From NCBI GenBank assembly GCA_938041555.1, contig CALIAC010000011.1, forward strand, positions 18,466-82,465: 64,000 nucleotides of DNA, read 5' to 3'. Both the position numbers and the translations under genes were made by a program. The notes under the pieces are model-generated. The model did not search any database, was not told the origin of the DNA, and saw nothing but the letters and a program-made list of their open reading frames with translations. Source of the stretch: an uncultured Candidatus Saccharibacteria bacterium (lineage in GTDB: Bacteria > Patescibacteriota > Saccharimonadia > Saccharimonadales > Saccharimonadaceae). Position 1 is the first letter of the stretch; every line of letters starts with the position of its first letter. Below are positions 13,432 to 63,185 of this stretch, piece by piece.

Positions 13432-13603
13432 AGTCACTCTCTATGATAGCATCTTTGTGCACAAATGGGTATTATGTTGTGTATGTCACAATGTTTTTGC
13501 GTGAACTTCCCTGTTGTGGCACGTTAATTGCAAACTCAGTGGTATCAGTCTATTATCTCCATTACTTCATCCATATTAACTATAGAATGGAAGAATGAAG
13601 TGA

Positions 13604-14899
13604 TTACGCTTGCACAATACGGCGAAAGTAGTCGTGCACAGCGGGTTGGCTCGCTTCGGGCACGTTGGCCATATATTCAGCGCCAAAGACCGTTGCAGCT
13701 GTGTCTCGGTCGAAGCAAAAGCCCGTCAGCCTAAGCGGAGCATACCCATCGCCAAACTGCCCCCACACCGTACCGGGCGGGAATTCTACACCGCAGTACC
13801 GTACTGCGTCGGCGGCAAGGAACGTATGCGCCCCATGTGTTTTGCTGATAAAGCGCTTGTTAGCAATAGCCGTCTCGCCTATCGCTGGTTGAGTCCTCAT
13901 CCTATATGCCTGAGCAAAGTACGCCTCTACGTCTTTGCAGCCGCCCTCACGGAGGCGCACTGCTTCGGTCGGCATAGGCAGATCGCTGGTGCGGTCGGTG
14001 CCACGAGTGGCAATTTGGCTCAGTAAGGCAACCAAGACATCCGCCGCTGGCTCACCAGTTGGCTGGAGCACTGCATGATGTTCGTCTTCCGCCACAAGGT
14101 GGCCCGTTTGGTCAGCCGCCATCTTGATAATCTCGCGAGACATCCAGGCATAAGCATTGCCATAACGGCTATCCCGCTCGGTAACGAGCTCCCACTCAGC
14201 AGCATCCGCAAGCCGCACACCACCAGCATCACAGGCATCCAACAGCGCTCGCGCTGATGCGGTGTGGAGATACAGATGTTCGTCTGTATCATTTTGCTCT
14301 TCGTAGCGGGCAAGCAGTGCCGTCCCATAGCATTGTAATGCACTATTGCCACCATCTTGCTGAACTCTACGCATCAAGACGCGGTCAATGTAGATACTTG
14401 GGTCAAATACACCGATGGAGATCGTTGGGTTGCCAGCGTGCAGATGTTTAATACCACTTGTAATCTGGTACGCCACCTCTTGCATGCGCCGCATAGCTGG
14501 CGACTGCTGGTATGCATCTGCTACAGCCTGGCAAAATTCATCATTAGTCAGCCCATCATCCCGCCTTCGGCATAATGTGACGGTTCGCTGCTCGAGAATA
14601 CGCGCCTTATCTATCGTCTCATCCACTGCAACGACTGCGCCATTTAGCAGTGGCACTACCTCCTCAGGTATCATATCTGCCGGGCTGCCATCCATCAAAT
14701 CTTTTGCAGTATTCTTACCTGCTGCTATCGTCTCCAAATCTTGTGCAAACCTCTTTGTCTCGCGCGCTGCTTTATCAACAACAAACTGCCGACGTTTTTG
14801 CTCAAGCCGATCAGCCGTACATAGCGGCTCTCTCGCTCTTTCGTGTGAGAAAGACACTGGCGAAGTTGTTTCAGCTGGCGGTTGTTTTTCTTGACTCAT
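13604..14899 (-). CDS. hypothetical protein (431 aa, soluble, no recognised domain)
   Basis: Long ORF. Start trimmed to ATG 14899 so that it does not overlap the GNAT gene. Confidence 0.5.
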   Translation of the reverse strand: MSQEKQPPAETTSPVSFSHERAREPLCTADRLEQKRRQFVVDKAARETKRFAQDLETIAAGKNTAKDLMDGSPADMIPEEVVPLLNGAVVAVDETIDKARILEQRTVTLCRRRDDGLTNDEFCQAVADAYQQSPAMRRMQEVAYQITSGIKHLHAGNPTISIGVFDPSIYIDRVLMRRVQQDGGNSALQCYGTALLARYEEQNDTDEHLYLHTASARALLDACDAGGVRLADAAEWELVTERDSRYGNAYAWMSREIIKMAADQTGHLVAEDEHHAVLQPTGEPAADVLVALLSQIATRGTDRTSDLPMPTEAVRLREGGCKDVEAYFAQAYRMRTQPAIGETAIANKRFISKTHGAHTFLAADAVRYCGVEFPPGTVWGQFGDGYAPLRLTGFCFDRDTAATVFGAEYMANVPEASQPAVHDYFRRIVQA

Positions 14900-14946
14900 T
14901 GTTGCATGATAGCGTATAGTGGTTAGTTTTGTAAAGCGTTGCACTA

Positions 14947-15615
14947 CTACAGCAACACCACCCGCTCGCGCGCCCACTCTAATGCGGCGAGGCTGCGCTG
15001 GCGCGCTGCTATGTGCTCGGGCGAGGGTTGGTCGCTCCCCCACCACTGTTTCCAAGCCCAATCGATGGGATTAAGACATTCAAGGTGATCGGTATGGTGC
15101 AGCTTACCATTGATAAAGCTGTCGTTGCGCTGGGTGTAGAGATGAGTATAGCCACACCGCTGGAGGGCGCGCAGGCTCGCAATGTTGCCCTGCACCACGG
15201 CCGATTTGATGCAGTGCAGCCCCAGATTTTCAAAGGCGTACCACGTACGAGCATGGTGGCTAGCACTAGCAACACCCTTGCCCCAGTAATGTTTATCCAC
15301 AATAATAATGCCACTTGTGGCAGTGTGGACGTGCTTTCTCGTAATATTCACCAGTGATGTACCACCAATCAGCCGCCGCGTTTCGCTATCCTTGGCCCAG
15401 ATACCCCAGACGATACTTTCTTTGTCTGCGATTGTCTTGTCGTACCATGCTTGCTCGGTCTCGAGCGTCTGCGCCCGGTGCTCGGCAAAATACTGCGTGA
15501 CCGTCCCGTGCGCAAACCCGTCCACAAATGGCCTCAGCTCATCCCGCGCAAACGGCGCAAGCTCCAGCTCGAGCCCCCGCTTTGTCGTGACTGTCATCAT
15601 TGGGCCAAATGCCAT
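14947..15615 (-). CDS. GNAT-family N-acetyltransferase (RimJ/RimL-like)
   Basis: Start at ATG 15615 with SD AAGGAG 7 nt upstream. The core 'IIIVDKHYWGKGVASASHHARTWYAFENLGLHCIKSAVVQGNIASLRALQRCGY' is an acetyl-CoA-binding GNAT fold. Confidence 0.75.
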   Translation of the reverse strand: MAFGPMMTVTTKRGLELELAPFARDELRPFVDGFAHGTVTQYFAEHRAQTLETEQAWYDKTIADKESIVWGIWAKDSETRRLIGGTSLVNITRKHVHTATSGIIIVDKHYWGKGVASASHHARTWYAFENLGLHCIKSAVVQGNIASLRALQRCGYTHLYTQRNDSFINGKLHHTDHLECLNPIDWAWKQWWGSDQPSPEHIAARQRSLAALEWARERVVLL

Positions 15616-15701
15616 AGTGTGCTCCTTTCGTGGTGTTTTTTCTAGTATAACATTGGTGGGAGAATAATACACAAGGCGAAGAGCCGCCCTCATCAGATAC
15701 C

Positions 15702-16406
15702 CTAAGGGCGAGAGAATAATGTGCTCATCACGCGCTTAACTCCACCACGGATAACGTCAAGCATCGTAGGTGCGGTATTCTTCTTGGAGCGCTCGACAAG
15801 TCTCTTGACGACGTCTATATCCTCTACCTGGGCATGCTTACCAAGGTCATTGCTTGGCTTTGTTTGCGTCTGCTGTGTATATCGCACAGCAAGTCCATCT
15901 GGGTCAATCACATACTGCGCCCCGCCAAGATCTACCTGATGAACAAATCCTTCACCACCATAGCCACGAATACTGATGCCATTCATAATACATTGAATGA
16001 TCGCACCTTTTTCCTTTTGTTGTACTTGCCCATTCTGTGTTGTCATATGCTCATACAGCTCTACAAGCACATGTGTCGAGCCATCAAAGGTCTCGAGGGG
16101 CTGGAGTGTACCCTCATGCTGCTCGCGATATTGCGCTTGCACTGCATCCGCCGCCTTGAGCAGCTCGCGCGTCTGTGGCGAATCTGCTACGTCGGCAATC
16201 TTTTCGATATCGTCAAGCGTCAGATCACTATACTTTATGTATCGTTGCTGTAGGCCCGGATCTTCACTGAACAGTGGCACACCCTCAAGGTGCTGATCAA
16301 TAAAAGCGTCAAAATCAGCCACCGCCTTCTCATACTCGGTCCGACCTAGCATAGCTTCGAGAGTAGAAATGCCATGGCTGCTTGCCCCATGCCCTGCTTC
16401 ATACAT
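15702..16406 (-). CDS. hypothetical protein (234 aa, acidic, soluble)
   Basis: ATG with SD AAGGAG 8 nt upstream. It lies directly after the rpsO terminator. No domain recognised. Confidence 0.55.
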   Translation of the reverse strand: MYEAGHGASSHGISTLEAMLGRTEYEKAVADFDAFIDQHLEGVPLFSEDPGLQQRYIKYSDLTLDDIEKIADVADSPQTRELLKAADAVQAQYREQHEGTLQPLETFDGSTHVLVELYEHMTTQNGQVQQKEKGAIIQCIMNGISIRGYGGEGFVHQVDLGGAQYVIDPDGLAVRYTQQTQTKPSNDLGKHAQVEDIDVVKRLVERSKKNTAPTMLDVIRGGVKRVMSTLFSRP

Positions 16407-16494
16407 ACTACAACTCCTTTTTTATTTATGGTGTGGTATATTATGTTACGATACATTCTGGGTTAATATTTGTCAATCACGGCACTATGAATCT

Positions 16495-16521
16495 TAAAAA
16501 CCTCCCCAGTAAGTGGGGAGG
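16495..16521 (-). terminator. rho-independent terminator after rpsO
   Basis: Stem CCTCCCCA/TGGGGAGG with a 5-nt loop, then TTTTT on the minus strand. Confidence 0.7.
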
Positions 16522-16542
16522 TCTATTTCTCGTGGCGGGCGC

Positions 16543-16809
16543 TTATTTGCGCAGGCCGAGGGTTTCGAGCGTTGCTTTGTAGGCATCAAAGTTGGTCCGC
16601 TCAAGGTAGCGGAGCAGCCGCTTGCGCCGGCCGACCATTTGCTTGAGGCCACGACGAGCCATGTTGTCGTGCTTGTTGGACTTAAGGTGTTCGGTCACCT
16701 CTTTGATACGAGCCGTCAAGATAGACACCTGCGCCTGTGGGCTGCCGACGTCATTCTTGCTGACCTGAGTCAAAGCAATCGCTTTCGCTTTGTTATCCTT
16801 AGTAATCAT
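16543..16809 (-). CDS. rpsO: 30S ribosomal protein S15
   Basis: 88 aa. 'GSPQAQVSILTARIKEVTEHLKSNKHDNMARRGLKQMVGRRKRLLRYL' is canonical S15. Confidence 0.95.
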   Translation of the reverse strand: MITKDNKAKAIALTQVSKNDVGSPQAQVSILTARIKEVTEHLKSNKHDNMARRGLKQMVGRRKRLLRYLERTNFDAYKATLETLGLRK

Positions 16810-16862
16810 ACTGGTGTATTGTAGCAGGAGGGCGGCGCGGTGTCAATGTAGACATGTAGACG

Positions 16863-17627
16863 CTAGCGACAAAGCGCCTGGTGTGCCTGATCAATCGAAG
16901 CAACCTGCGCGGCAGCATCTTCTCCTATATAACCAAGCTGCGAAAGTTTCTGCATAAACTGCTTCTCGTCATCCTCTTTCACCAAGCGCCGTGCATGATT
17001 ATACGTTTCAAAGAAAGCCATCTTCACCGCTGGATGCTCTTGAGCAAGTGACCTCAGTTCTTTTCGTGCATCATCTGTCATCGTTAGATGCTTCTTAAAT
17101 AACGTGCTATACAATCCTCGGACGAGCTCAACCTCGGGAAACACTGCTCCAGCACGAAGCAATGCTGGCGTCGTTCCATGGTACACATCTACAAAGCCGA
17201 TGCTCTCTATATCTTCTTCCGACTTCAGTGTTGCTACATCAACCGTTGAAGCACGCAAACGAGCACGAAAGTTGTTTGGGTCTTCTGTATTACGCAACCC
17301 ATGCTGGCGAAGAAATGCCTCCCAAAATTCGTCCTCGTCCTTATATGGTGAAGTGCGATCCACTGTACTATCCGCTGCTGGCCACCCCCAGTGTGCATTC
17401 ACTTCGTCTATTGCCACTTCGTCTGCACCTGGGCGCTGCTTAGCCTCCGCGAGCGTAAGTGGTTGCATACTACTTACCAGAGGCTCGTGACCCTGTAGCT
17501 GCTCGTCGATTGCTACAGCAATAGCTCGCAGCTCTTTACCGAGTCGTTCTTGCTCGGCTGCTAGTTGCTCAGGCGTCATACCGCCAATTATTCCTACCTT
17601 GTCTGGATTTATCTCGTTATTTGCCAT
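16863..17627 (-). CDS. hypothetical protein (254 aa, soluble)
   Basis: ATG start and a long ORF. No confident domain (see finding on the weak H-G-T / G-L-Y / E motif). Confidence 0.5.
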   Translation of the reverse strand: MANNEINPDKVGIIGGMTPEQLAAEQERLGKELRAIAVAIDEQLQGHEPLVSSMQPLTLAEAKQRPGADEVAIDEVNAHWGWPAADSTVDRTSPYKDEDEFWEAFLRQHGLRNTEDPNNFRARLRASTVDVATLKSEEDIESIGFVDVYHGTTPALLRAGAVFPEVELVRGLYSTLFKKHLTMTDDARKELRSLAQEHPAVKMAFFETYNHARRLVKEDDEKQFMQKLSQLGYIGEDAAAQVASIDQAHQALCR

Positions 17628-17675
17628 ATATCAAGTATGACAGTAGTAGGACTATGAGTCAAATCGAGGGGTTCG

Positions 17676-18374
17676 TTACCACCCCACCCGCACGCCATAC
17701 TGTGCCGTCTGCCCCGGTACCAGCACTGTGGCATGAGCTGGGTCATCAGCGAAGGAGTTGCCGCTGTGTGTTGGCTCAATGCAGAGGTACGGGCCCAACT
17801 CATCCGTCCAAACCGCCCAGCGAGGTAGCCCCTCACTCTGCAGCGTGATGGTGCGCAGGCCCGTCGCGAGCTGGCGCGTAGGCCCATCAACAAAGATCGT
17901 CTCCGCGAGCGGCGTAAGGTCAGCTAATGGCTGGCCATCCAGTACTGGCACACCATCATACGCAAAATACGGGTGGAAGGCTGGTGCCATAAGGAGTTCA
18001 TCCTCGCCAACATTCACCAGGGTGAGCTGCATTGCAAGCTGGTGCTCCGCCACTGTATATACCAAGCGAGACTCCAGCCAAGCATAAGCATCACTCCCCT
18101 GCAGCATAAGCTCCACTCGGTCGCTGGTGTGCTCCACCACCTGCCACTGGCTGGTGCGGCCAAAGCCATGCTGCGCCAAGCCACTCGCTCCGCCCGGACC
18201 AAAGTTGGGTAAGCAGACATGGCAGCCACCGCGCGTCTTACACTCGCCATCAGGAGCGGTGAGCTGCTGCAGTGGGTAGAATACATCCCCATACTCATCA
18301 GTCAGGCTGGTGATATACGCACCATCTGTCGTAATAGTTGCGGTGGTCGTGCCAGTGTGTAGCGTGATGTTCAT
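17676..18374 (-). CDS. aldose 1-epimerase family protein (hexose-6-phosphate mutarotase-like)
   Basis: 232 aa. 'RGGCHVCLPNFGP...HGFGR...FHPYF' resembles the 'RGGIPxCFPxFG...HGFxR' motifs of the YeaD/galactose-mutarotase-like fold. SD is GAGGAA. Confidence 0.65.
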   Translation of the reverse strand: MNITLHTGTTTATITTDGAYITSLTDEYGDVFYPLQQLTAPDGECKTRGGCHVCLPNFGPGGASGLAQHGFGRTSQWQVVEHTSDRVELMLQGSDAYAWLESRLVYTVAEHQLAMQLTLVNVGEDELLMAPAFHPYFAYDGVPVLDGQPLADLTPLAETIFVDGPTRQLATGLRTITLQSEGLPRWAVWTDELGPYLCIEPTHSGNSFADDPAHATVLVPGQTAQYGVRVGW

Positions 18375-18409
18375 CGGTATTCCTCGCTTCTTTATTTTAT
18401 TGTGTATGG

Positions 18410-19114
18410 CTAATCAACAATCCCAAAATCCTGCAGCTGCTGCGCCTCTGCTACCGACCAATCGGCAATCGCCGTACGCCGCAGCGCCGCGCAGTACGCC
18501 CCCGTCCCAAGCTGCGTGCCAATATCTACCGCCAGGCTGCGAATGTACGTACCACTACTCACCCGCGTGCGAATGACGAGCCGCGGATACTGATACTCCA
18601 GCACCTCCAGCGAGTGAATCGTAATGGTGCGCTCTGGCAGCTCTACTTCCTTGCCATCGCGCGCGAGTTTGTAGGCCCGCTGGCCGTTGATCTTGATGGC
18701 ACTAAAGATCGGTGGCCGCTGGCGAATCTGGCCAATGAAATGCTGGAGCACTTTATCGAGCTGCTGACGTGATGGCGGTGCGATGGGCACCTTGGCATCT
18801 TCTGGCACATACGGCGTTATCTCCCCTTCTGGGTCGCCCGTGGTGCTGGTTTGGCCCAGGATAATCGTCGCTTCGTACGTCTTGTCGAGCTTGGTGTAGC
18901 GCATGGCATTGCGGCACTCCGTGCCCATCACTAGCAGTAAAAGGCCCGTTGCAAAGGGGTCAAGTGTGCCACAGTGCCCCACCTTCACCTTTTTGCCAGC
19001 CTGCTGGCTCAGCACCCGCCGCACCCGCGCCACCACTCCAAAGCTCGTCATACCAGCCGGCTTGTCGATATGGAGAATGCGGTTATATGATGAATCAGAT
19101 GTTTGGTGCGTCAT
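18410..19114 (-). CDS. truB: tRNA pseudouridine(55) synthase
   Basis: 'ILHIDKPAGMTSFGVV' and the catalytic-Asp motif 'GHCGTLDPFATGLLLL'. Confidence 0.9.
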   Translation of the reverse strand: MTHQTSDSSYNRILHIDKPAGMTSFGVVARVRRVLSQQAGKKVKVGHCGTLDPFATGLLLLVMGTECRNAMRYTKLDKTYEATIILGQTSTTGDPEGEITPYVPEDAKVPIAPPSRQQLDKVLQHFIGQIRQRPPIFSAIKINGQRAYKLARDGKEVELPERTITIHSLEVLEYQYPRLVIRTRVSSGTYIRSLAVDIGTQLGTGAYCAALRRTAIADWSVAEAQQLQDFGIVD

Positions 19115-19139
19115 GTGGTTAGTATAGCATGACGGAGCA

Positions 19140-19163
19140 AAAAACCAGCCGCGAGGGGCTGGT
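19140..19163 (-). terminator. rho-independent terminator after 19176..19841
   Basis: Stem CCAGCC/GGCTGG with a 6-nt loop, followed by TTTTTT on the minus strand. Confidence 0.6.
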
Positions 19164-19175
19164 CTTTTGGGCTAC

Positions 19176-19841
19176 CTAGGCTTCGATACTTCCTGCTGGT
19201 GTGAAAGATTGTCCTTTGTGGTGATTATGCTCACCCTGTCTCACCTGCATAAACGTATTAAGCTCTTCGGTCAACTCAAGAATTTCATCGTAGTGCGATG
19301 GATCGTCATAGGATAGTTGATTAACTCTTAGCATAAATTTGTCTCCCTTAAACTTAAGCCAAGTTATGCCATCCTTGGTTGCAAGACCACCATACGAGCA
19401 ATTATAGCCAAACTTCAGGTCGCGTGCTGTTGATGCTGCTTGCGCCTCTCCTGCCATCGCACCAGAGAGCTTGAATAGTATAAGTACGCCATCGCAGCCC
19501 TCGCCCGCAGTGCCCTCCGACTCAAATGCAACAACAGATGTCGCAAGGTCGATATTTTCTTCTCCCATTTCTGTCGTATATATTTGGTGTGGTTCAAATA
19601 AACGAGCTTGTGTGTGAGCACTGCGATTAATATAAATACCCAATCTGTTAAGACTCGCACTGACGGTAGTAATATTAGCAGTACCCCGAGCATGTACATC
19701 AACCTCTTCTGTTGCATCAGGCTTATCAAGAACATCCAAGAGAGCAATGAGTCGTTGCCGCTCTGCGTCCCTCTTGTATGCTTCTTGCTGGACGCCTGTA
19801 ACGTTATAGTTTTTAAGTAGATTGGGTTTGCTGCTGTCCAT
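19176..19841 (-). CDS. hypothetical protein (221 aa), AT-rich orphan
   Basis: ATG start and its own terminator. My hand count of one 100-nt sample gave about 43% G+C, against about 53% in a pnp sample. No domain recognised. Confidence 0.5.
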   Translation of the reverse strand: MDSSKPNLLKNYNVTGVQQEAYKRDAERQRLIALLDVLDKPDATEEVDVHARGTANITTVSASLNRLGIYINRSAHTQARLFEPHQIYTTEMGEENIDLATSVVAFESEGTAGEGCDGVLILFKLSGAMAGEAQAASTARDLKFGYNCSYGGLATKDGITWLKFKGDKFMLRVNQLSYDDPSHYDEILELTEELNTFMQVRQGEHNHHKGQSFTPAGSIEA

Positions 19842-20000
19842 AATGGACTATATAATAACTCTCTCTCTCTGGCCTGTCAAGAAATCTACATATACAAATC
19901 TTATAATCTTACAGTTTTTACCCTTTCTCTACCATAAACCGGCTAAATCATGGCCGGTTTATCGTGTCATCTCTCATTTAACAGCAGAAGCCAGCAACCC

Positions 20001-21545
20001 CTACTTCTCCGGTACGTGGAATTGCGATGGGTTGGCTTGGTCTTTCTTGGCCTTAGCCTCAGATTGGAGCGCAGCATCGAGCTGGGCCATGGGGTTATCG
20101 GCATCGGGCCCAGGCAGCGGTGGCACACCTGGTGGCAATGGTGGCAAGCTAGAGAAATCTGGCATTGGTGGCAGTGGTGGCAGAGCCGGCCCTTCGGCAT
20201 CATCAGCTGACACGGCACGGTGCTTGGCGTCGAGGTCGGCCAGGGTTTCTTTGCCCGTTGGTGGCGGGAGGATGTCGTCGTTGTGAGCCATCGGCACGCG
20301 CGGCATGTCATTCACATTGGGGACGGTTGGCTCGTGATCAAGTGCTGCCGTGGCGGCATTGAGCGGCGCTTGGCTACCTGGTGTGTCGTCGCTGTCGAGG
20401 TAACGCCCACCCTTGTGCGAGAGGATGGTCTTGTTGCGGCCATTCTCGCGCTCGCGGCGCTTATCATCAGCTGCTTGCTTGGTGGTAGCATTAAGCGTGC
20501 CACCCAGGCTCGGCTCATTAAGTGGCGTCTCAATGGGCTGGCGCCATGGCTCGGCGCTGCTGTTGCGCCCTGATGAGCGGCGCGGGGCTGGCGCGGGCTC
20601 GGGCTGTGGATTATTCTTGGCTAACTGCTGGGCTAGCTCAGCTTCGTCGGCGTCGGTCTGGCTTAACTTTTTTTTTCCAGCCTCAGCGTTGTGCGAGATG
20701 ACGAGTGACTTGTCTTTGTTATTTGCCTGAGCAGGCTTCTTGCTAGCAGGCTTAGCAGGCATTGGGCCTGCAGCGAGCTGCTTGGCCTCGGCGAGCTTGG
20801 CCGCAATCAGCTGCTGGTCACCGCCAGCACTCATCAATTGCGCGGCGAGGGTCATAACACGCGAGGTGGTCTTCTCGTTGCTAAAGCGCTCGGTGGCCGC
20901 TACAATACCAGTCAAAAAGGCCGTGGCAATATGCTTGTCCAAGAGCGGCTGCTCATCATCGGTACTATCAAAGCCCTGAGCGAGGCTTGCCGCGAGCTCA
21001 CTATAGCTGCTGGCCTGAGGATCCGTCCAGACAATATTACCCAACGTACCTGGCGCATCGATGTGCAGCGCCGCCACTGGCGACTCGCGCAGGATGCGGC
21101 CATGCCCTTTGAGCGCTGGGTCGAGGTCATCCTCGCTGCGCACACCGATCGTCACGACGAACTGCACATTGTAATCACCCTGGCTAAATTCCAAATCACT
21201 CTGGCTAATCGTTGCGCGGTACGGCGTGATGAAAATCTTAACGAGGTCGCCATCGAGCTTGTAGCGCAAATGGTCGGCCTTTTCCTTATCAAGGGCAATG
21301 ATGAAATCTCGCAGACTATCCACCGTGCTCTCAAAGGTACGCTCTGGCTCCAAAAAACCCACTGCCGTTGGTACATCCCCACTAAAGACGGCTGTGGCGT
21401 GCTTGTCGAGCTTGTTGAGCAAAAGCGTCAACCCTAGTGCTGCACTCAGCTCATCTACCGTAGGGTGGGCGTTGACCGCCACCAAAATATTATTACTCTC
21501 ACCTAGTTTGTCGATGATTTGTTGCCGCACCTTTATCTCGTCCAT
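20001..21545 (-). CDS. DHH-family (NrnA-like) fold protein with degenerate catalytic motifs and a long Pro/Ala-rich C-terminal tail
   Basis: Start trimmed to ATG 21545 (SD AGGAG). The N-terminal ~300 aa align by eye with NrnA-type DHH/DHHA1 architecture ('NILVAVNAHPTVDELSAALGL'), but the DxD and DHH residues are not conserved. The C-terminal ~200 aa are low complexity (PPLPPMPDFSSLPPLPPGVPPLPGP). Confidence 0.45.
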   Translation of the reverse strand: MDEIKVRQQIIDKLGESNNILVAVNAHPTVDELSAALGLTLLLNKLDKHATAVFSGDVPTAVGFLEPERTFESTVDSLRDFIIALDKEKADHLRYKLDGDLVKIFITPYRATISQSDLEFSQGDYNVQFVVTIGVRSEDDLDPALKGHGRILRESPVAALHIDAPGTLGNIVWTDPQASSYSELAASLAQGFDSTDDEQPLLDKHIATAFLTGIVAATERFSNEKTTSRVMTLAAQLMSAGGDQQLIAAKLAEAKQLAAGPMPAKPASKKPAQANNKDKSLVISHNAEAGKKKLSQTDADEAELAQQLAKNNPQPEPAPAPRRSSGRNSSAEPWRQPIETPLNEPSLGGTLNATTKQAADDKRRERENGRNKTILSHKGGRYLDSDDTPGSQAPLNAATAALDHEPTVPNVNDMPRVPMAHNDDILPPPTGKETLADLDAKHRAVSADDAEGPALPPLPPMPDFSSLPPLPPGVPPLPGPDADNPMAQLDAALQSEAKAKKDQANPSQFHVPEK

Positions 21546-56084: not shown

Positions 56085-56146
56085 CAGCGCAGCGCGCTAG
56101 TCTATTACAGCAAAAACTGGCACATTACCTCTGTTTCGTGCCTCAT

Positions 56147-56172
56147 AACCCACCGCTTGGCCGGTGGGTTTT
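56147..56172 (+). terminator. rho-independent terminator after the ABC-2 operon
   Basis: Stem CCCACCG/CGGTGGG (extendable) with a 6-nt loop, then TTTT. Confidence 0.7.
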
Positions 56173-56191
56173 GGGTTCAAATTTTACCCCC

Positions 56192-56220
56192 TTGACAAAA
56201 TCCCACATTCTTTCTACTAT
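56192..56220 (+). promoter_or_regulatory. sigma-70-type promoter for the lipoprotein gene
   Basis: TTGACA (56192-56197), 17-nt spacer, TACTAT (56215-56220), about 38 nt upstream of ATG 56258. Confidence 0.5.
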
Positions 56221-56257
56221 TAACAGTATCGATACACTATACAAGAAAGGTCAAACC

Positions 56258-56638
56258 ATGACGCGAGAACACTTCTCCACTCACGAGGATAAAACCGTAT
56301 CTAGCGCGGTATTGCGAGCTGCCAAAAAAGGAGCGGCTGTAGTAGCATTGGTACCGGTCGCCGTATTGGGCGTAGCAGGCTGCTCCAGTAACGAGAGCTC
56401 GGCACCTACCACTGCTAATAGCGAAGAGTGGACACAGGTATGGGATGATGGATTTGGTGTTGAGCTCGATAGTACTGGTAAGCGATGTGATGGCCCAAAT
56501 CTCCTCTACAGGAGTGGAGGCCGTGGTGGGAATATTGCAGTCTCTCCCAACGACCCCCAGTGCACCGGTAAGACACCAGAGGCCACTGCCACCGACCTAG
56601 CCACGGCAATCCCAACACCACTGCCAACGCACGAGTAG
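56258..56638 (+). CDS. small lipoprotein
   Basis: ATG 56258. The signal peptide ends in the lipobox 'LGVAGC'. The 126-aa protein has two more Cys in the mature part. Terminator at 56662-56692. Confidence 0.6.
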   Translation: MTREHFSTHEDKTVSSAVLRAAKKGAAVVALVPVAVLGVAGCSSNESSAPTTANSEEWTQVWDDGFGVELDSTGKRCDGPNLLYRSGGRGGNIAVSPNDPQCTGKTPEATATDLATAIPTPLPTHE

Positions 56639-56697: not shown

Positions 56698-59667
56698 CTA
56701 CCCCCCTGGCCGCTCTGCATATCGCTCATACACAGCGCGGTTGGCGGCGTTGGTGTTGCGGCGGAGCTCTGGAGTGTTGAGAATGCGGTAAGCATCATGA
56801 CGAAGGGCTTGGTGACGCTCAGCATAGGCTTGGTCGAAGGTCGGCTCAATGGCAGCCCGCTTCTCGGGCGAGAGGGTGCGGAGGTACGAGTCTTTGATCT
56901 GCTGGTAGTCGGGCAAATCAGGGATACTATAGATCAGCTCTAGTGCGCCATCATTTGCCCCTGCGAAGTTCTCTGCCTTGAGCCGCCCCTCAAAGACCTG
57001 GCGCAGCGAGTGCATCTTCTCAGCAGCTGCGCCGTTGTATTCGCCGCGCAAGATCGCATCGTACGTCACGTCATTCACGAATGGCACCGCACCCGCCACC
57101 CCAGAGGCCACCGCCTCGGCCGAGACAGTCGCGCGAGCATCGTAGTTATACCCCTGGCGCACCTGCACTGTACCATCGTCTGCCACGTATTCGATCTCGC
57201 GGCCAGTCTCGCGGATAATCTCGCGCTTTTGGCCAGCCGAGCCAGCTCGGAACTGGTGCTCGATAGCCGCCTCCTTGACGTACTCATTATCCGCCCGGAA
57301 GGTGTGCTGGTTGCCACTAGCATCGGTGAGGGTGATGGCAGTATCGCCCGTGGCGGCCATGGCTTGCCATTGGTTGCTGTTGAGCTTGAAGTGGCGCATC
57401 AGCTGGTCTTCGGCCGCAACATGCTCACCAAACTCCTTGCGCAGCCGCGCCGTCTGGCCTGCCACCATCAAGTTCTTATGCCCTACCCCTGTAGCGTAGT
57501 CTTGCAGCGTCTGGCCATCGACCATCCGGCGGCGCAAGGCAATGCCATCGCCATTGCGCAGCACCACACCATCAGCATTGGCCACTGCTCCATCGGCGAG
57601 GAGCTCACGGTCGATCTTCGCCCGCACTTCACGCTGCGCCATCGCACTGCGGATCTCCGTTAGCGCACCCACCTCGGCCGCTGCATAAGCGCGCCGCCCC
57701 AAGCCATGGCTCAAGCCAGCTGGTACCTCACCGCCAAGCTTCAGCTCATCGTAGAGTGCATCCAGCTTATGGGCAGCATTCTTGGCTTCATCAGAGGTGA
57801 GCTGGGTGTTGAGTGCTCGCTGCTTGAGCTCATCATCGTGCAAGAGGCGTGCGTTCCAGGCTCGGTCGCGCCGCGCTGCTCCCTCCTTGCCACGCAGGTC
57901 GGTGTAGCGGTTATATTCATCATTGCTCCGCCCCACCGCCGATAGGTCGGCCATTGTTTCAAAGCGCTTCGTATAAGCATCGGTTCGCTGCTGAAGAGCG
58001 CGTTTCTTCAGGGCTCGGCGCCGCGCTGCATTGCCCAGCCAGTTGCGCTGCGCATCACCGGCGAGCACGCGCGATTTGCGCAGGTCTGCCCGCTGCTGCG
58101 CCCAAGTCCGCGTTCGGTCAACGATGCCACGCCGCGGATCATTCATAATCGCACCCAGCCGCCCCAGCAGCGAGCCGCTCATCCGCACCACAAAGGGCGT
58201 TAGCACCAGTGGCACTACCTGCACTGCCAGGCCAAGGATGATGAGGTTGAGATTATTCGCATCCTTACCATTCGTCAGGATAGCCACCCCCGCCAGGCGC
58301 GACCCACCAAACAATATCGACATCAGCGGAAACATCAACATCATCGTCATAAAGAGATCCTTCCACTTATCAAAATACTTCTCTGTACTAGGCAATACAT
58401 GTAACAAGAAAGCAAAGGGCGAGATGATAACAAGAATAGTGATGAGTGCCTGGCGCGCCGCAATAATCACCGCAGCGATGATAACCGCCAACAGAACACC
58501 CACCAGCAGCGGGATGGCCATCGCCAGCGCCCCATCCGTCGCACCCACCAGTGCACCCACTCCCACCACCGCACCCACCGCGCTAGCGCTACCCGTCAGC
58601 AGAGCACTCATGACATTAGGCCAGGTGATTTTATTAAGCGTGTTATAATCCGCCCCATTGACCGTCGAGGCAATATTGACAAACAGCTGCTGCAGCTGAA
58701 AGCCCAATATATTCGAAATATCGATCGCCGCCGCACACAGCCAAAACGACATATTAACGACGATAATCGACACGACGAGGCGCGGAAACATCTTCTTAAT
58801 GCCATAATTGCTAATACCAACACTGGTAACTTGCGAATAAATGACGATGAGCGAGACGATGATAAAGGCGATGTTGGCTAAGTCGCGCATGATCGCCCAA
58901 AAGCGAAAGAGTGTGCCATCGCTACCAGATTGGAGTGGCTGCACCGCCAAGTACTGCGCCACCTGCTGGTAGAGCTGGTCAGTGATCCACGCCATGAAGT
59001 TGCTCACCGGGCAGACAATCCAGCCAATACTTCCCAGCGCTGTGCCACTACAACTGGTCGTGGCACCATCATCTTTATCTGCTTGCTCGGCGGGTTTGTC
59101 TTGGGGTTGGTTGTTGTTATTATTTGCCGCTTGGCCGTTATTCCCGCCATTTTGGCCGTTGGCGTTGTTCTGATTATTACCAGCGTTTTGCCCAGCTTGA
59201 CCACCGTTATTTTGATTATTTTGGTTGTTCTGGCCACCGTTATTTTGCGGCGCGGCCTCCTGTTGCCCCGAGACAGAGATGGCAATGGCATCATCCATCT
59301 TGTTATACGTATCTGGCTCAACAAAGATATACTCTACGTACGTCGCTTCCTTGGCACGAAGCGGATCACTACCAGCTGGGAAGACGATGGTTTGGCGCCG
59401 ATTGGTCGTTGGCTCATACTCATAGAAGTGCACGCCAGCAGGTAAGCCGCGATCTGCCACCCCTTTGTCGCCCCCTCGGTATGGCTTGAAGGTATTATGA
59501 CGAAAGATAAGGTTCTCGCCCTGGCGCTGCGCCGTCTCAGCAGCATATACCGGCACAGAGGTAGCGAGCGTGAGCCCCAAGAGTGCCGCCACTAATAGTG
59601 CCAGCCACCCCGTATATTGCCGCAGACAACCCCTCGCCCGCGCAACCACTCGCCACGCTCTGTTCAT
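56698..59667 (-). CDS. VirB6/TrbL-like type IV secretion polytopic membrane protein with large N- and C-terminal extensions
   Basis: Start at ATG 59667 (the listed start is TTG). It has a signal peptide (LALLVAALLGLTLATSVPVYA), a ~140-aa ectodomain, an N/Q/G low-complexity tract, about 7 TM helices and a ~440-aa Arg-rich soluble C-terminal domain. The call rests on topology, size and the divergent pilin array, not on a computed alignment. Confidence 0.55.
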   Translation of the reverse strand: MNRAWRVVARARGCLRQYTGWLALLVAALLGLTLATSVPVYAAETAQRQGENLIFRHNTFKPYRGGDKGVADRGLPAGVHFYEYEPTTNRRQTIVFPAGSDPLRAKEATYVEYIFVEPDTYNKMDDAIAISVSGQQEAAPQNNGGQNNQNNQNNGGQAGQNAGNNQNNANGQNGGNNGQAANNNNNQPQDKPAEQADKDDGATTSCSGTALGSIGWIVCPVSNFMAWITDQLYQQVAQYLAVQPLQSGSDGTLFRFWAIMRDLANIAFIIVSLIVIYSQVTSVGISNYGIKKMFPRLVVSIIVVNMSFWLCAAAIDISNILGFQLQQLFVNIASTVNGADYNTLNKITWPNVMSALLTGSASAVGAVVGVGALVGATDGALAMAIPLLVGVLLAVIIAAVIIAARQALITILVIISPFAFLLHVLPSTEKYFDKWKDLFMTMMLMFPLMSILFGGSRLAGVAILTNGKDANNLNLIILGLAVQVVPLVLTPFVVRMSGSLLGRLGAIMNDPRRGIVDRTRTWAQQRADLRKSRVLAGDAQRNWLGNAARRRALKKRALQQRTDAYTKRFETMADLSAVGRSNDEYNRYTDLRGKEGAARRDRAWNARLLHDDELKQRALNTQLTSDEAKNAAHKLDALYDELKLGGEVPAGLSHGLGRRAYAAAEVGALTEIRSAMAQREVRAKIDRELLADGAVANADGVVLRNGDGIALRRRMVDGQTLQDYATGVGHKNLMVAGQTARLRKEFGEHVAAEDQLMRHFKLNSNQWQAMAATGDTAITLTDASGNQHTFRADNEYVKEAAIEHQFRAGSAGQKREIIRETGREIEYVADDGTVQVRQGYNYDARATVSAEAVASGVAGAVPFVNDVTYDAILRGEYNGAAAEKMHSLRQVFEGRLKAENFAGANDGALELIYSIPDLPDYQQIKDSYLRTLSPEKRAAIEPTFDQAYAERHQALRHDAYRILNTPELRRNTNAANRAVYERYAERPGG

Positions 59668-60009
59668 GTCTTGTTCGACATTAGCATAATATCGCACAGT
59701 GGTCAAGTTTTTGCTGCCTGCATATCAAATCGTATCTATTGCGCACTCCCTTCTAGCGTTACACAGGCTACTATTGGCGAATAATCCTACCCCTGTGCAG
59801 AGCTAAAAACTATCACTATTTATTTCATCTCTCATAAAGCAGCCCAGCAGCAAAAGCGAACCAGCCCAGAAAATATCGACCTTGCAGCCCAAGTTTTATG
59901 CACCACGATGCCAATACCACCACCCAGCCATTCGCTCCTACTCTGTTCGTGCCCCGCCCCAGTCTTTACAACACCGCTCGTATCGTATACACTACAGCGT
60001 AGGAATAGT

Positions 60010-60411
60010 ATGATGAAATATAAGCGATTGATCTTGGGCTTCGGTGCAATGCTGGCAATTTTTGCCGGCGGTGTTGCTATGCCAGCACAGGTGATGGCGG
60101 CAGGTGATGGCTGCGGGATTATTGACTTCACAGGCGTAAGTTGTTCCCAAGAGGCTGACCCAAAAGATAAGGGAGATGCCAATATCTCTGGTCTACTCAT
60201 TGGTTTTCTCAGAATCATGAATGTCGGTGTTGGCATCGCAGCAGTTGGCGCGCTTATTTACGCTGGTATTCTCTACTCAACCGCTAGCGGTGACGCTAAT
60301 AAAACAGCCCAAGCTAAGACAGTTATCACCAATGTTGTTATAGGTATTTTGGCATATGCAGTTATGGGTATTGCGCTTAACTTCCTTGTGCCAGGAGGAA
60401 TTATCCGATGA
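60010..60411 (+). CDS. VirB2/TrbC-like T4SS pilin paralog 1
   Basis: 133 aa. Signal peptide (..PAQVMA|AG), 2 Cys in the head, then two hydrophobic helices flanking 'YSTASGDANKTAQAKTVITNVVIG'. Confidence 0.6.
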   Translation: MMKYKRLILGFGAMLAIFAGGVAMPAQVMAAGDGCGIIDFTGVSCSQEADPKDKGDANISGLLIGFLRIMNVGVGIAAVGALIYAGILYSTASGDANKTAQAKTVITNVVIGILAYAVMGIALNFLVPGGIIR

Positions 60412-60812
60412 TTCGCCGTCTTGCTGTTTTTGGGCTTGCTGTTGCCACCATACTCTCCTTTGCGTCTGCTACTCCAGCGCACGCTGCTGCACCCTGTTCA
60501 CCACCCAACTTCCTTGGTATGCCCGCTTGGTACCGTGGTCTCCAAGACTCGAACGATTGCAGTTCGATCCAAACGACCGACATCCAGACGATGATCCTCA
60601 CAATTGCCCTCAATATCCTCCAGGCTGCAATGGTTATCGTTGCCTATGTTGCCGTTGGGTTTATTATCAAAGGTGGCTATATGTATATGGTGAGCTCGGG
60701 CAGCCCTGATGCAATGGCCAAGGCAAAGAACACGATCCGCGATGCACTGATTGGTCTTGTTATTGCGATCTCTGCAGCAGCAATCGTTGACATGGTAGCG
60801 GGGGTTATCTAA
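60408..60812 (+). CDS. VirB2/TrbC-like T4SS pilin paralog 2
   Basis: 134 aa. ATGA overlap with paralog 1. Signal peptide (..TPAHA|AA), 2 Cys in the head, core 'YMVSSGSPDAMAKAKNTIRDALIGLVIAI'. Confidence 0.6.
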   Translation: MIRRLAVFGLAVATILSFASATPAHAAAPCSPPNFLGMPAWYRGLQDSNDCSSIQTTDIQTMILTIALNILQAAMVIVAYVAVGFIIKGGYMYMVSSGSPDAMAKAKNTIRDALIGLVIAISAAAIVDMVAGVI

Positions 60813-60813
60813 T

Positions 60814-61104
60814 ATGTGGCGTATATTCTCAACCCTCAAAGGTGTTAGTGCACAAGATATCAAGTACCAAAGCTCCGCAGATAACTCAAGTATTCTCCAA
60901 AATGTCCTTAACACTGCTTATATTTGGGCCGGGGTGGTTGCAGTTATCGTCATTATTGTAGCGGGTTTTATGTATACCGTATCACAAGACGACCCAAGCC
61001 AAGTAAGTCGCGCCAAGAACACCCTGCTTGGTGCTATTGTTGGTCTCGCTGTTGTTCTTCTCGCTTTTGTCATCACCAATACTGTTCTAAATGGAGTCTT
61101 TTGA
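60814..61104 (+). CDS. VirB2/TrbC-like T4SS pilin paralog 3 (no signal peptide)
   Basis: 96 aa. It starts 1 nt after the paralog 2 stop. Core 'YTVSQDDPSQVSRAKNTLLGAIVGLAVVL'. Confidence 0.55.
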   Translation: MWRIFSTLKGVSAQDIKYQSSADNSSILQNVLNTAYIWAGVVAVIVIIVAGFMYTVSQDDPSQVSRAKNTLLGAIVGLAVVLLAFVITNTVLNGVF

Positions 61105-61532
61105 TGAAGCTATCTCTACAGCGCACACTCTGTCTTATTGGTACAGCCCTGTTGCTCGGTCTTACCTACTCACCCTCCGCCTTTGCCCGTGTTGACGTCA
61201 CAGGAGAACTCAAGACCGATAATGCCTGTGATCTAGCTACCGACGGTGATGGTAACGATGGCTGCCATGCGGTAACTTCAAGTGCACAAGGCGGTGCGCT
61301 CACCCCAATGGTCATCGTCACACGTGGCATCAATATTGCTCTCGTTGTCCTTGGTGGCGTCTCTGCTCTTATGATTGTCTATGCGGGCTTTCGTTTTACA
61401 CTAGCCGGCGGCGACCCACAGGCGGTCAAGGCCGCTCGCAATACCATCCTCTATGCAGTTGCAGGTCTTGTTATTGCTATACTTGCCTATGGTATAGTAA
61501 GTTGGATTACTGATAGAATATCGATAACATAA
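61104..61532 (+). CDS. VirB2/TrbC-like T4SS pilin paralog 4
   Basis: 142 aa. The ATG overlaps the paralog 3 stop (TGATG). Signal peptide (..SPSAFA|RV), 2 Cys in the head, core 'FTLAGGDPQAVKAARNTILYAVAGLVIAILAY'. Confidence 0.6.
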   Translation: MKLSLQRTLCLIGTALLLGLTYSPSAFARVDVTGELKTDNACDLATDGDGNDGCHAVTSSAQGGALTPMVIVTRGINIALVVLGGVSALMIVYAGFRFTLAGGDPQAVKAARNTILYAVAGLVIAILAYGIVSWITDRISIT

Positions 61533-61547
61533 GGGAGGTATAATATA

Positions 61548-62000
61548 ATGAACACCTTTACAAAATTAGTTCTCAGCGCAAGCATCTGCTCTACTGTTGT
61601 AGCTGGTGCTATTGCCCCATCTATCGGCGCTGCAGCGCCGTCGCCCATCAACACCTTTGCAGCAAGCACCACAGCAAAGGAGAAGGTTAAGGAAGGTATT
61701 AGAGGCGCTGGTGGAGACAACAATCAAATAACCATCGGCTCAGCGATCAAAAGCATCATCGACATCATGCTCTTCGCCCTCGGTGCTATCTCCGTCATCA
61801 TGATTGTCATCGGTGGTATTCGCTACACGACATCCAATGGCGACTCAAACGGCATCCAGGGTGCCAAAAATACCATTCTCTACGCTATTGTCGGCCTTGT
61901 TGTGGCTATTCTCGCCTATGCCATGGTCAATTTCGTCGTCGATAACCTCGTGAGTGGCGGCAGCCAATCCACCCCAACCGCCAATTATACATACGTCTAG
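61548..62000 (+). CDS. VirB2/TrbC-like T4SS pilin paralog 5
   Basis: 150 aa. SD is AAGGGAGG. Signal-like N-terminus, core 'GGIRYTTSNGDSNGIQGAKNTILYAIVGLVVAILAYA'. Confidence 0.6.
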   Translation: MNTFTKLVLSASICSTVVAGAIAPSIGAAAPSPINTFAASTTAKEKVKEGIRGAGGDNNQITIGSAIKSIIDIMLFALGAISVIMIVIGGIRYTTSNGDSNGIQGAKNTILYAIVGLVVAILAYAMVNFVVDNLVSGGSQSTPTANYTYV

Positions 62001-62152
62001 TATAGCTCTCATGCCCACTCCGCTTGCATTCTGCAATAAAATAGGCTCTTTTTTGGGGATTTTCTCCGTTAACTCTTAACATTTTGGCAAATTTTTGGTA
62101 TATATAGATAGTACAGGTAGTACAGTAGAGTACTAACGCCAATAGAAAGGAC

Positions 62153-62599
62153 ATGACAATGAAAATCAATATCAAAAAAGCTATGCTTACACTCCTCGCC
62201 GTGCCAATGCTGGCTGCAGGTGTTGCTGGGCTGGTAGCTCCACACGTTGGCGCAGCAGCTGCATCCGACAACGGCCTTGGCCTCAGGAAGGGAGTTGGCT
62301 CTGCTAAGGGAAACGACCAAGTAAGTTGTCTCTTCGGTAGCGAAAAAGAAGGCTGTACTGATGGGACTGGTATTTTCCAGACAATCGTCAACGTGATTCT
62401 CTTCATCGTTGGTGCAGTTGCCGTTATCATGATTGTGATTGGTGGTGTGCGCTACACCGTGTCAAACGGTGACTCAAACGCCGTTACTGGTGCCAAGAAC
62501 ACCATCATGTACGCCATCGTTGGCCTTGTCGTCGCGATCATCGCCTACGCGCTCGTCAACTTCGTCGTCGTCAATATCGGTGCCAACCAAGGGCAATAA
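62153..62599 (+). CDS. VirB2/TrbC-like T4SS pilin paralog 6
   Basis: 148 aa (start ATG 62153 or 62159). Signal peptide, 2 Cys in the head, core 'GGVRYTVSNGDSNAVTGAKNTIMYAIVGLVVAIIAYA'. A 152-bp spacer lies upstream and a terminator lies downstream. Confidence 0.6.
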   Translation: MTMKINIKKAMLTLLAVPMLAAGVAGLVAPHVGAAAASDNGLGLRKGVGSAKGNDQVSCLFGSEKEGCTDGTGIFQTIVNVILFIVGAVAVIMIVIGGVRYTVSNGDSNAVTGAKNTIMYAIVGLVVAIIAYALVNFVVVNIGANQGQ

Positions 62600-62629: not shown

Positions 62630-62660
62630 TACCACCCTCTCGCAGGGTGGTACTTTTTGT
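62630..62660 (+). terminator. rho-independent terminator after the pilin array
   Basis: 9-bp stem TACCACCCT/AGGGTGGTA with a 5-nt loop, then CTTTTTGTT. Confidence 0.75.
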
Positions 62661-63185
62661 TGAGGATATATTCGACGACACTTACGCAAGAAAGTCTGTC
62701 TATTGCTAATGGCGTCTGATACTGACTGTTTTTGCGTAGCACTAGCCATGCTATTCCATTTCACTCTGGCTGGAGAATCATCATCACACTGCGCTCATTA
62801 TACTTTACACTCTAGAAACCTCATAATAAGCCATCGCACCATTCAGGAGGTGCTTTGGGAAGTTTCTAGTATTCTTAGCTTCTTCAACTATATACTCTAA
62901 TAGAGCCGTTTTACAAAATCATTACACCCCACTACTTTCGCCACCTCTTGTATGAGCTACAACCCCCTGATTAAGATCGGTAATCTCAACAGCTCTCAAC
63001 CCTTCTCCTCACTACCATTTCTCCTACAGTTATTGCAAAAGCTTTCTCGAGAACACCAGTCTCTCAGTGCTAATACCAAATGACAACCTTCTGCTACCAA
63101 TATTCACGCTCTGCTAAATGAGATAGAGAACATATACCTAGATACCATAAGAGGCCTCAAGGCTCGCATTACCCACTTCCCACAA

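Follow-up and report, generated by a model that had tools for sequence, protein, structure and literature searches.

Saccharibacteria and other Candidate Phyla Radiation (CPR) members live attached to host bacteria, and a type IV secretion system (T4SS) is essential to that lifestyle. Here, we analyzed a 64-kb stretch of DNA (the window) from the chromosome of an uncultured, oral Saccharibacteria lineage, focusing on six small genes, termed P1–P6, at positions 60010–62599 of its forward strand. We read them, with a probability of roughly 0.6, as a chromosomal saccharibacterial T4SS pilin array whose six genes are ancient, non-redundant paralogues within the PF18895 family and lie divergently from a VirB6-like channel gene. 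Two results sharpen the hypotheses on such arrays: class-wide, the six paralogues make up a set that is fixed and ordered, and five of them lie in deep, apparently recombining haplotypes beside an invariant sixth. Arrays of this kind are already published and the array itself is nothing new in kind; the haplotype result is an incremental yet testable addition.

An earlier note, made from the sequence of the window, had described six consecutive same-strand open reading frames (ORFs) of 96–150 aa, and we confirm this layout. P1 (60010–60411, forward strand as for all six) encodes 133 aa comprising a signal peptide (about residues 1–30), a head with Cys35 and Cys45 and a two-helix core. P2 (60408–60812; 134 aa) has a signal peptide and a head with Cys30, Cys51 and the conserved motif CSPPNFLGMPAWYRGLQ, followed by P3 (60814–61104; 96 aa), a short paralogue without signal peptide and without cysteine. 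P4 (61104–61532; 142 aa) combines a signal peptide with a head carrying Cys42 and Cys54, P5 (61548–62000; 150 aa) has a signal peptide, a Cys-free head and a C-terminal tail, and P6 (62153–62599; 148 aa, or 146 aa from the second ATG, the start usually chosen in gene calls) has a signal peptide and a head with Cys59 and Cys68. The start of P1 is ambiguous, with lengths from 132 to 165 aa in the gene calls of relatives.

Kyte–Doolittle hydropathy analysis yielded two segments of transmembrane (TM) grade in the core of all six proteins and a signal-like N-terminal hydrophobic segment in five of them, P3 being the one without, bearing out the signal peptides proposed before. The cysteine pattern of the earlier note likewise held: exactly two cysteines lie between signal peptide and helix 1 in P1, P2, P4 and P6, and P3 has none. 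One extra cysteine lies inside the signal peptide in each of P4 and P5, and no lipobox was seen by eye in any of the six sequences. The aligned paralogues have in common a hydrophobic helix, a short polar loop with a near-invariant Lys/Arg (K115 in P6) and a second hydrophobic helix, at pairwise identities of 22–45%. Read literally, the shared core motif of the earlier note matches P5 and P6 alone; loosened but kept in register, it matches all six. Gene conversion of recent date between the cores of P5 and P6 was considered and set aside on the many synonymous differences seen by eye, which were not computed.

To place the array among its relatives, we used P5, P6 and four P6 homologues as search seeds and obtained 80 species loci. 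The six-paralogue profile detected 5–8 tandem pilin ORFs in most of these species loci with a complete locus, and finding tandem ORFs at the same locus in most relatives it shows that the P1–P6 array is not a chance pattern. Across about 55 species loci, the position of a gene corresponds to its paralogue, the first being P1, the second P2, the penultimate P5 and the last P6, with the last position mapping to P6 in 51 of 55 arrays. The heads carry signatures of their own. A Cys pair was found at position 1 in 24 of 27 arrays and at position 4 in the same proportion (24/27), the position 2 head retains a PAWYRGL..C motif across Saccharimonadia, and position 3 is consistently short, at roughly 95–100 aa, without any cysteine before helix 1 in 24/27 arrays. 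For positions 5 and 6, a Cys pair was present in about 60% of arrays. By their position-specific orthology and head signatures, the six are ancient, specialised paralogues and not recent copies. This speaks for a heteromeric set that is fixed and against a repertoire of interchangeable subunits, the two alternatives left side by side in the earlier note, of which the former fits better. Judged by the array literature (PMC7427843, PMC10633639, PMC12857230 and the text of PMC12102498 as far as searched), the position-specific orthology is apparently unreported and possibly new.

A lone seventh PF18895 pilin (P7), conserved class-wide, is usually located downstream, a few kb from the array and beyond this window. 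In L007, for example, it occupies 18786–19214 (142 aa), about 8 kb downstream of P6, and in environmental lineages it is usually found on the opposite strand. Given this lone conserved pilin, the functional set may be seven and not six.

We compared the array among about 30 close relatives. A polymorphic cassette extends over 60100–61950 of the forward strand, from just past the P1 signal peptide as far as a point inside P5 or at its end, and occurs in at least three deep haplotypes, the window carrying the one that we call type A. The flanking proteins (spermidine-synthase-like, ABC ATPase and permease, VirB6-like and Hsp20) are 91–100% identical over full-length alignments, with one exception of 86% for the spermidine-synthase-like protein. 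P6 is near-invariant, being 94–100% identical in about 25 related species genomes with a proportion of nonsynonymous differences (pN) of 0.03 or less, whereas P1–P5 of types B and C show 56–75% aa identity to type A of the window, P4 being the least conserved paralogue (56–60%). At the nucleotide level, identity falls from mostly about 85–100% in the flanks to 31–79% in the cassette, where the heads reach minima of 31–65% and the cores 66–79%. Sliding-window identity delimits the divergent block to about 60100 on the left and about 61800–62000 on the right, with the right breakpoint inside or just after P5. A type-A variant, L017, shows sharp drops at the start of the P1 mature region, at the P1/P2 junction and at the start of P4.

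Between haplotypes, the proportion of synonymous differences (pS) in the P1–P5 block is 0.54–0.95, near saturation, and pN amounts to 0.19–0.54 in the heads and 0.04–0.20 in the cores. For the flanking genes and P6, pS is 0.16–0.36 and pN 0.04 or less, with the L017 spermidine-synthase-like gene as the exception. Every haplotype retains the Cys positions, and in type B an insertion in P1 carries a second Cys pair. Between strains, no segment varies more than the P1 head, and the heads of P2 and P6 show good conservation. The variable heads proposed in the earlier note thus do vary between strains, yet they are not free-form, being built on paralogue-specific scaffolds and in two cases well conserved.

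Comparing cassette type with the tree of either flank, the nearest neighbour shared the cassette type in 11 of 26 cases, against roughly 10 by chance (a rough estimate); being near chance, this value indicates that the haplotype is uncoupled from flank phylogeny. Types A and B were, in addition, found on separate contigs of one sample. Together, the pattern points to P1–P5 being alleles of old age that recombination has reassorted or balancing selection has maintained, and since divergence peaks in the heads, it is consistent with their surface exposure. A cassette of three haplotypes bordered by an invariant P6 and VirB6-like gene appears unreported in the array literature, PMC12102498 as far as its text was searched, and is possibly new. 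As a tentative reading, the P1–P5 cassette may be a balanced, recombining polymorphism that sets the host bacteria or host surface variants to which an oral Saccharibacterium attaches. It is conceivable, and no less speculative, that at least three ancient types are shuffled among near-identical genomes and co-occur in one mouth while P6 and the VirB6-like protein stay fixed.

P1–P6 almost certainly belong to the PF18895 (T4SS_pilin) family and to one array. Against a Pfam gathering score of 26.6 bits, P2, P3, P4, P5 and P6 reached 45.0, 42.4, 37.0, 32.6 and 43.2 bits, respectively. P1 remained sub-threshold at 21.1 bits (E 3.3e-4), matching the same region of the profile; it scores 134 bits with the paralogue hidden Markov model and, on this score, is clearly a paralogue of the array family despite its sub-threshold PF18895 match. 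All 48 family members tested matched PF18895, and 15 of the 48 matched PF04956 (TrbC/VirB2) at E below 0.01, the best at 5.2e-7. In the array itself, PF04956 is borderline, with P3 at 27.5 bits (E 3.6e-6) against a gathering score of 27.9 bits, P2 at 16.2 bits and no match for the other four. Of the Pfam checks foreseen in the earlier note, the one with the T4SS pilin family was therefore passed by P2–P6, and in the one with TrbC/VirB2 P3 stayed just short; its statement that such proteins are annotated as 'T4SS pilin' in Saccharibacteria and CPR genomes was correct. The best NCBIfam match for all six is NF045849 (pilin-like protein Mbov_0395 of a Mycoplasma integrative and conjugative element; E 1e-9 to 1e-5), at 24.6–37.5 bits across P1–P6 and so under its cut-off of 40 bits. 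DUF6112 was also matched by 21 of 48 relatives, and no toxin domain was found in Pfam or NCBIfam scans of P1–P6.

The AlphaFold models consist of a confident helical hairpin and a poorly ordered head, in accordance with the helix-loop-helix topology anticipated from the sequence. AlphaFold 2 placed the hairpin helices at residues 74–103 and 108–145 in P6 and at 24–56 and 61–95 in P3, both with a predicted local distance difference test (pLDDT) score above 90.

The gene preceding the array (56698–59706, reverse strand) encodes a 1002-aa VirB6/TrbL-like polytopic membrane protein with a Q/N/G-rich low-complexity stretch, and is transcribed divergently from P1–P6. Taken alone, this protein matches Pfam TrbL weakly (E 0.14); among 18 VirB6-like homologues, six match TrbL, the best at 7e-7. 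A profile of its TM core together with 17 homologues had a single match in the PDB, namely TrwI, the VirB6 of R388 (7o3v; E 5.7e-4). In nearly all loci with enough upstream DNA, a VirB6-like homologue, and often two, is found upstream of the array on the strand opposite to it, so that the pairing of array and VirB6-like gene recurs class-wide across Saccharimonadia. The link to the VirB6-like gene drawn in the earlier note therefore holds as conserved synteny. In the window's lineage, a single VirB6-like gene adjoins the array; in environmental Saccharimonadia, two tandem VirB6-like paralogues lie upstream of it (L050 1013–7776). Depending on the strain, the protein is 967 to 1004 aa long, and there is a dip in nucleotide identity at its Q/N/G-rich stretch (QNNGGQNNQNNQNNGG...; window 59100–59300, reverse strand).

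Based on established knowledge of VirB2/TraA pilins, we propose a pilus or conduit mechanism for the array, for which we see about even odds. Five of the proteins would be Sec-exported with cleavage of their signal peptides, and P3 would insert without one, giving a membrane pool in which the loop is cytoplasmic and both head and C-terminus lie outside. The chromosomal T4SS (VirB4, VirB6-like) would then extract the pilins into a short pilus or conduit touching the host bacterium, exposing the N-terminal heads on its outer surface and turning the loop Lys/Arg (K115 in P6) toward the lumen. P6 is the probable major subunit, a proposal made because of its own spacer, promoter-like site and terminator and its high conservation. 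P1–P5, with their putatively disulfide-stapled, strain-variable heads, would probably be minor, tip or adaptor subunits, whose heads may set host-surface specificity or evade recognition.

Several points weigh against this reading. The label 'VirB2-like' is given because of Pfam profiles and topology, with no structural match demonstrated: hhalign assigned a probability of 0.6%, not significant, to A4 versus pTiC58 VirB2 and of 0.2% against a 22-sequence VirB2 alignment, a weak negative given the shallow profiles (Neff, the effective number of sequences, about 3). Foldseek comparison of the P6 and P3 models with the PDB returned nothing at E 0.001 or better, the best E being above 1; an archaeal conjugation pilus (8dfu) ranked 7th with E = 4 amid unrelated hairpins. 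Because helical hairpins match many unrelated proteins, Foldseek cannot discriminate here. The pilin family profile found no relative among PDB sequences either, a match to MacB at E 0.3 being spurious. Of the VirB2/TrbC kinship that the earlier note had proposed, the assignment to the T4SS pilin family was right, and similarity to VirB2 proper was weak and not significant. No VirB4 was detected among the large ORFs scanned in the 64-kb window, nor within 10 kb downstream in relatives; proximity of pilin and virB4 genes is not obligatory, having been found in only 1135 of 1948 assemblies (PMC12102498). Furthermore, no such pilus has been seen in any Patescibacterium, and pili are normally absent from Gram-positive-type T4SSs (PMC12102498, PMC12857230). 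The proposed division into major and minor subunits draws solely on operon layout and conservation. Finally, dN/dS in the heads is not above 1 and positive selection is not demonstrated, a ratio unusable as a test of such selection because synonymous sites between haplotypes are saturated.

Among the alternatives, the one that survives best takes the six proteins as membrane-embedded subunits of a T4SS channel or assembly platform together with the VirB6-like protein, with no extended pilus and with the heads on the surface face of the channel. We consider it rather unlikely. Monoderm T4SSs generally lack a pilus (PMC12102498), the nearest NCBIfam model comes from Mycoplasma, a wall-less monoderm, DUF6112 is matched by a good part of the relatives (21/48), and the array is tightly and conservedly paired with VirB6-like genes and not with VirB4, all of which would suit a channel. 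However, every NF045849 score falls below the cut-off, six paralogues with exported, disulfide-bearing, variable heads seem excessive for a channel lining, and the strong polymorphism of the heads suggests that they are exposed to some partner outside.

Use of the subunits one at a time, as an interchangeable repertoire for antigenic or host-range variation, has been proposed for the VirB2 arrays of Bartonella and Anaplasma, and PMC12102498 draws this analogy. The low intra-array identity (22–45%) and the diversity of heads both between paralogues and between strains would agree with such a use, which nevertheless appears very unlikely here. The order and identity of the paralogues are conserved class-wide, hence ancient and specialised, each position has its own conserved head motif, and P1–P4 are translationally coupled and therefore co-expressed, not switched. 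Moreover, the pilin series is reported as essential in S. epibionticum (PMC10633639), and no repeats or invertible elements were noticed on reading the sequence, of which no systematic search was made. That the proteins are instead soluble Sec-exported effector or toxin subunits released via the T4SS, like pertussis toxin S1–S5 beside ptl, is exceedingly improbable, since the signal peptides on five of six and a small-gene array adjoining T4SS genes (PMC7427843) are outweighed by two TM-grade helices forming a hairpin in every member, unfit for a soluble subunit, by the Pfam assignment to a pilin family, by an identity to S1 of only 11% in PMC7427843 and by the lack of a lipobox on reading the sequences.

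Returning to the heteromeric pilin array, both results taken together lead us to propose P6 as the major subunit, with specificity determined by the heads of P1–P5. The cassette types present in oral metagenomes could then be set against the host strains of Actinomyces or Schaalia. If the cassette indeed sets attachment, cassette type would predict host range and would, for the first time, open specificity in CPR episymbiosis to genetics. It would also imply that the pilus of a monoderm T4SS can be heteromeric, its adaptor subunits being exchangeable.

McLean et al. 2020 (PMC7427843) described 4–6 conserved Sec-signal proteins beside VirB4/VirB6 in TM7x and in environmental and oral Saccharibacteria, with a competence-related gene in the T4SS region, and read the TM7x array as pertussis-toxin-like secreted subunits with signal peptidase II (SPII) peptides. 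The TM7x (Nanosynbacter lyticus) array resembles the present one in its series of small signal-peptide proteins. In contrast to its SPII reading, the proteins here show no lipobox by eye and have two TM helices; lipoprotein signals as stated for the 2020 array were considered for P1–P6 and set aside on these grounds of the missing lipobox. Wang et al. 2023 (PMC10633639) reannotated the array proteins by structure as pilin subunits and found the predicted pilin genes essential in S. epibionticum ML1 by transposon sequencing (Tn-seq), and a 2025 review (PMC12857230) lists six structurally conserved, sequence-divergent VirB2-like pilins in S. epibionticum and speculates on a pilus conduit. The T4SS cluster of Southlakia epibionticum ML1 (SEML1_0006–0019) is one of the closest known systems, likened here by description and by the class-wide position-specific orthologues. 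Unlike that cluster, the array here adjoins only a VirB6-like gene, with no VirB4 in the 64-kb window.

Quinonero-Coronel et al. 2025 (PMC12102498) reported 441 VirB2 arrays of 2–11 genes in 383 Patescibacteria assemblies, with a mean identity of 25%, suggested that the arrays help to adapt to host strains and later reclassified the TM7x array as a VirB2 array. The present locus corresponds to their definition of an array, with tandem PF18895/PF04956 matches at 22–45% identity in Saccharimonadia; as far as the text was searched, it contains neither position-specific orthology nor P1–P5 haplotypes against a conserved P6. According to the same source, the arrays of Bartonella and Anaplasma phagocytophilum likewise consist of divergent tandem VirB2 copies, in a bacterium that depends on a host, and are considered to act in host-surface interaction or immune evasion. 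In contrast to those, the copies here are ancient, ordered and paralogue-specific class-wide, and the variation is allelic between strains, not between recent duplicates.

With the VirB2/TrbC/TraA pilins (PF04956; T-pilus, RP4 and F), the array proteins have in common a long signal peptide, a hydrophobic two-helix hairpin, a short polar loop with a conserved basic residue, a VirB6-type neighbour and the borderline PF04956 match. They differ in an extra N-terminal head of 25–40 aa on the mature protein, often disulfide-bearing by prediction, in number, with six paralogues here and one major pilin there, and in their monoderm host; with Agrobacterium VirB2 there is no significant profile-profile or fold match. 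The Mycoplasma Mbov_0395 protein (NF045849) is also a small two-helix protein of a monoderm T4SS, its gene being single-copy on a mobile element, whereas the array here is a chromosomal six-gene set.

The gene boundaries and control signals described in the earlier note were all recovered. P1 and P2 overlap by ATGA, P2 and P3 are separated by a 1-nt gap, and P3 and P4 overlap by TGATG. A GGGAGG Shine–Dalgarno sequence lies 9 nt upstream of P5, and a 152-bp spacer separates P5 from P6. Promoter-like sites, found as consensus matches only, lie on the forward strand upstream of P1 (59965–59993; TTTACA-17-TACACT) and in the 152-bp spacer before P6 (62084–62112; TTGGCA-17-GATAGT), with no significant enrichment of such sites over shuffled sequence. 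The array is closed by an intrinsic terminator (62630–62660, forward strand) made up of a 9-bp stem, five of whose pairs are GC, together with a 5-nt loop and CTTTTTGTTG; its stem and T-tract at 62630–62652 fold at −18.9 kcal/mol (z = −3.1).

The window otherwise represents ordinary chromosome, encoding ribonucleotide reductase, CTP synthase, ArgRS, PolA, DnaG, RpoD and PNPase; tRNA and Rfam scans of it returned no matches. P6 is 100% identical in the Candidatus Saccharibacteria metagenome-assembled genomes CAUSEJ01 and CAURIH01, where its contigs measure roughly 1 Mb, and a partial protein identical to P6 is named Candidatus Saccharimonas sp. A tblastn search of P3 against 72,556 plasmids gave no match, so that no close relative exists on known plasmids.

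Several further observations concern the surroundings of the array. Between the ABC-2 permease gene and the VirB6-like gene, a small predicted lipoprotein with a VAGC lipobox (...LGVAGCSSNE...) is encoded at 56138–56638 (forward strand); in close relatives with other flanking genes at ≥91%, it is absent or 61–100% identical. The segment from the P6 terminator to the Hsp20 gene (62700–63100) is replaced or indel-rich in L012, L016 and L017 (13–56% identity) and largely conserved in L013 and L030 (72–98% per 100-nt bin). In one strain, L009, a few kb of DNA separate the array from a downstream group of genes (13282–20441) that encodes a serine recombinase, a Replic_Relax protein and a TrwB-like NTPase and looks like an integrated mobile element. 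A ComF-like gene with a phosphoribosyltransferase domain lies downstream of the array in L007 (11712–12392) and L050 (11157–11825), in the latter with a double zinc ribbon, and is common to the window's and an environmental lineage. Between the array and the seventh pilin, L012 encodes a 955-aa beta-helix/NosD/leucine-rich repeat (LRR) protein (15158–18025), a possible surface adhesin.

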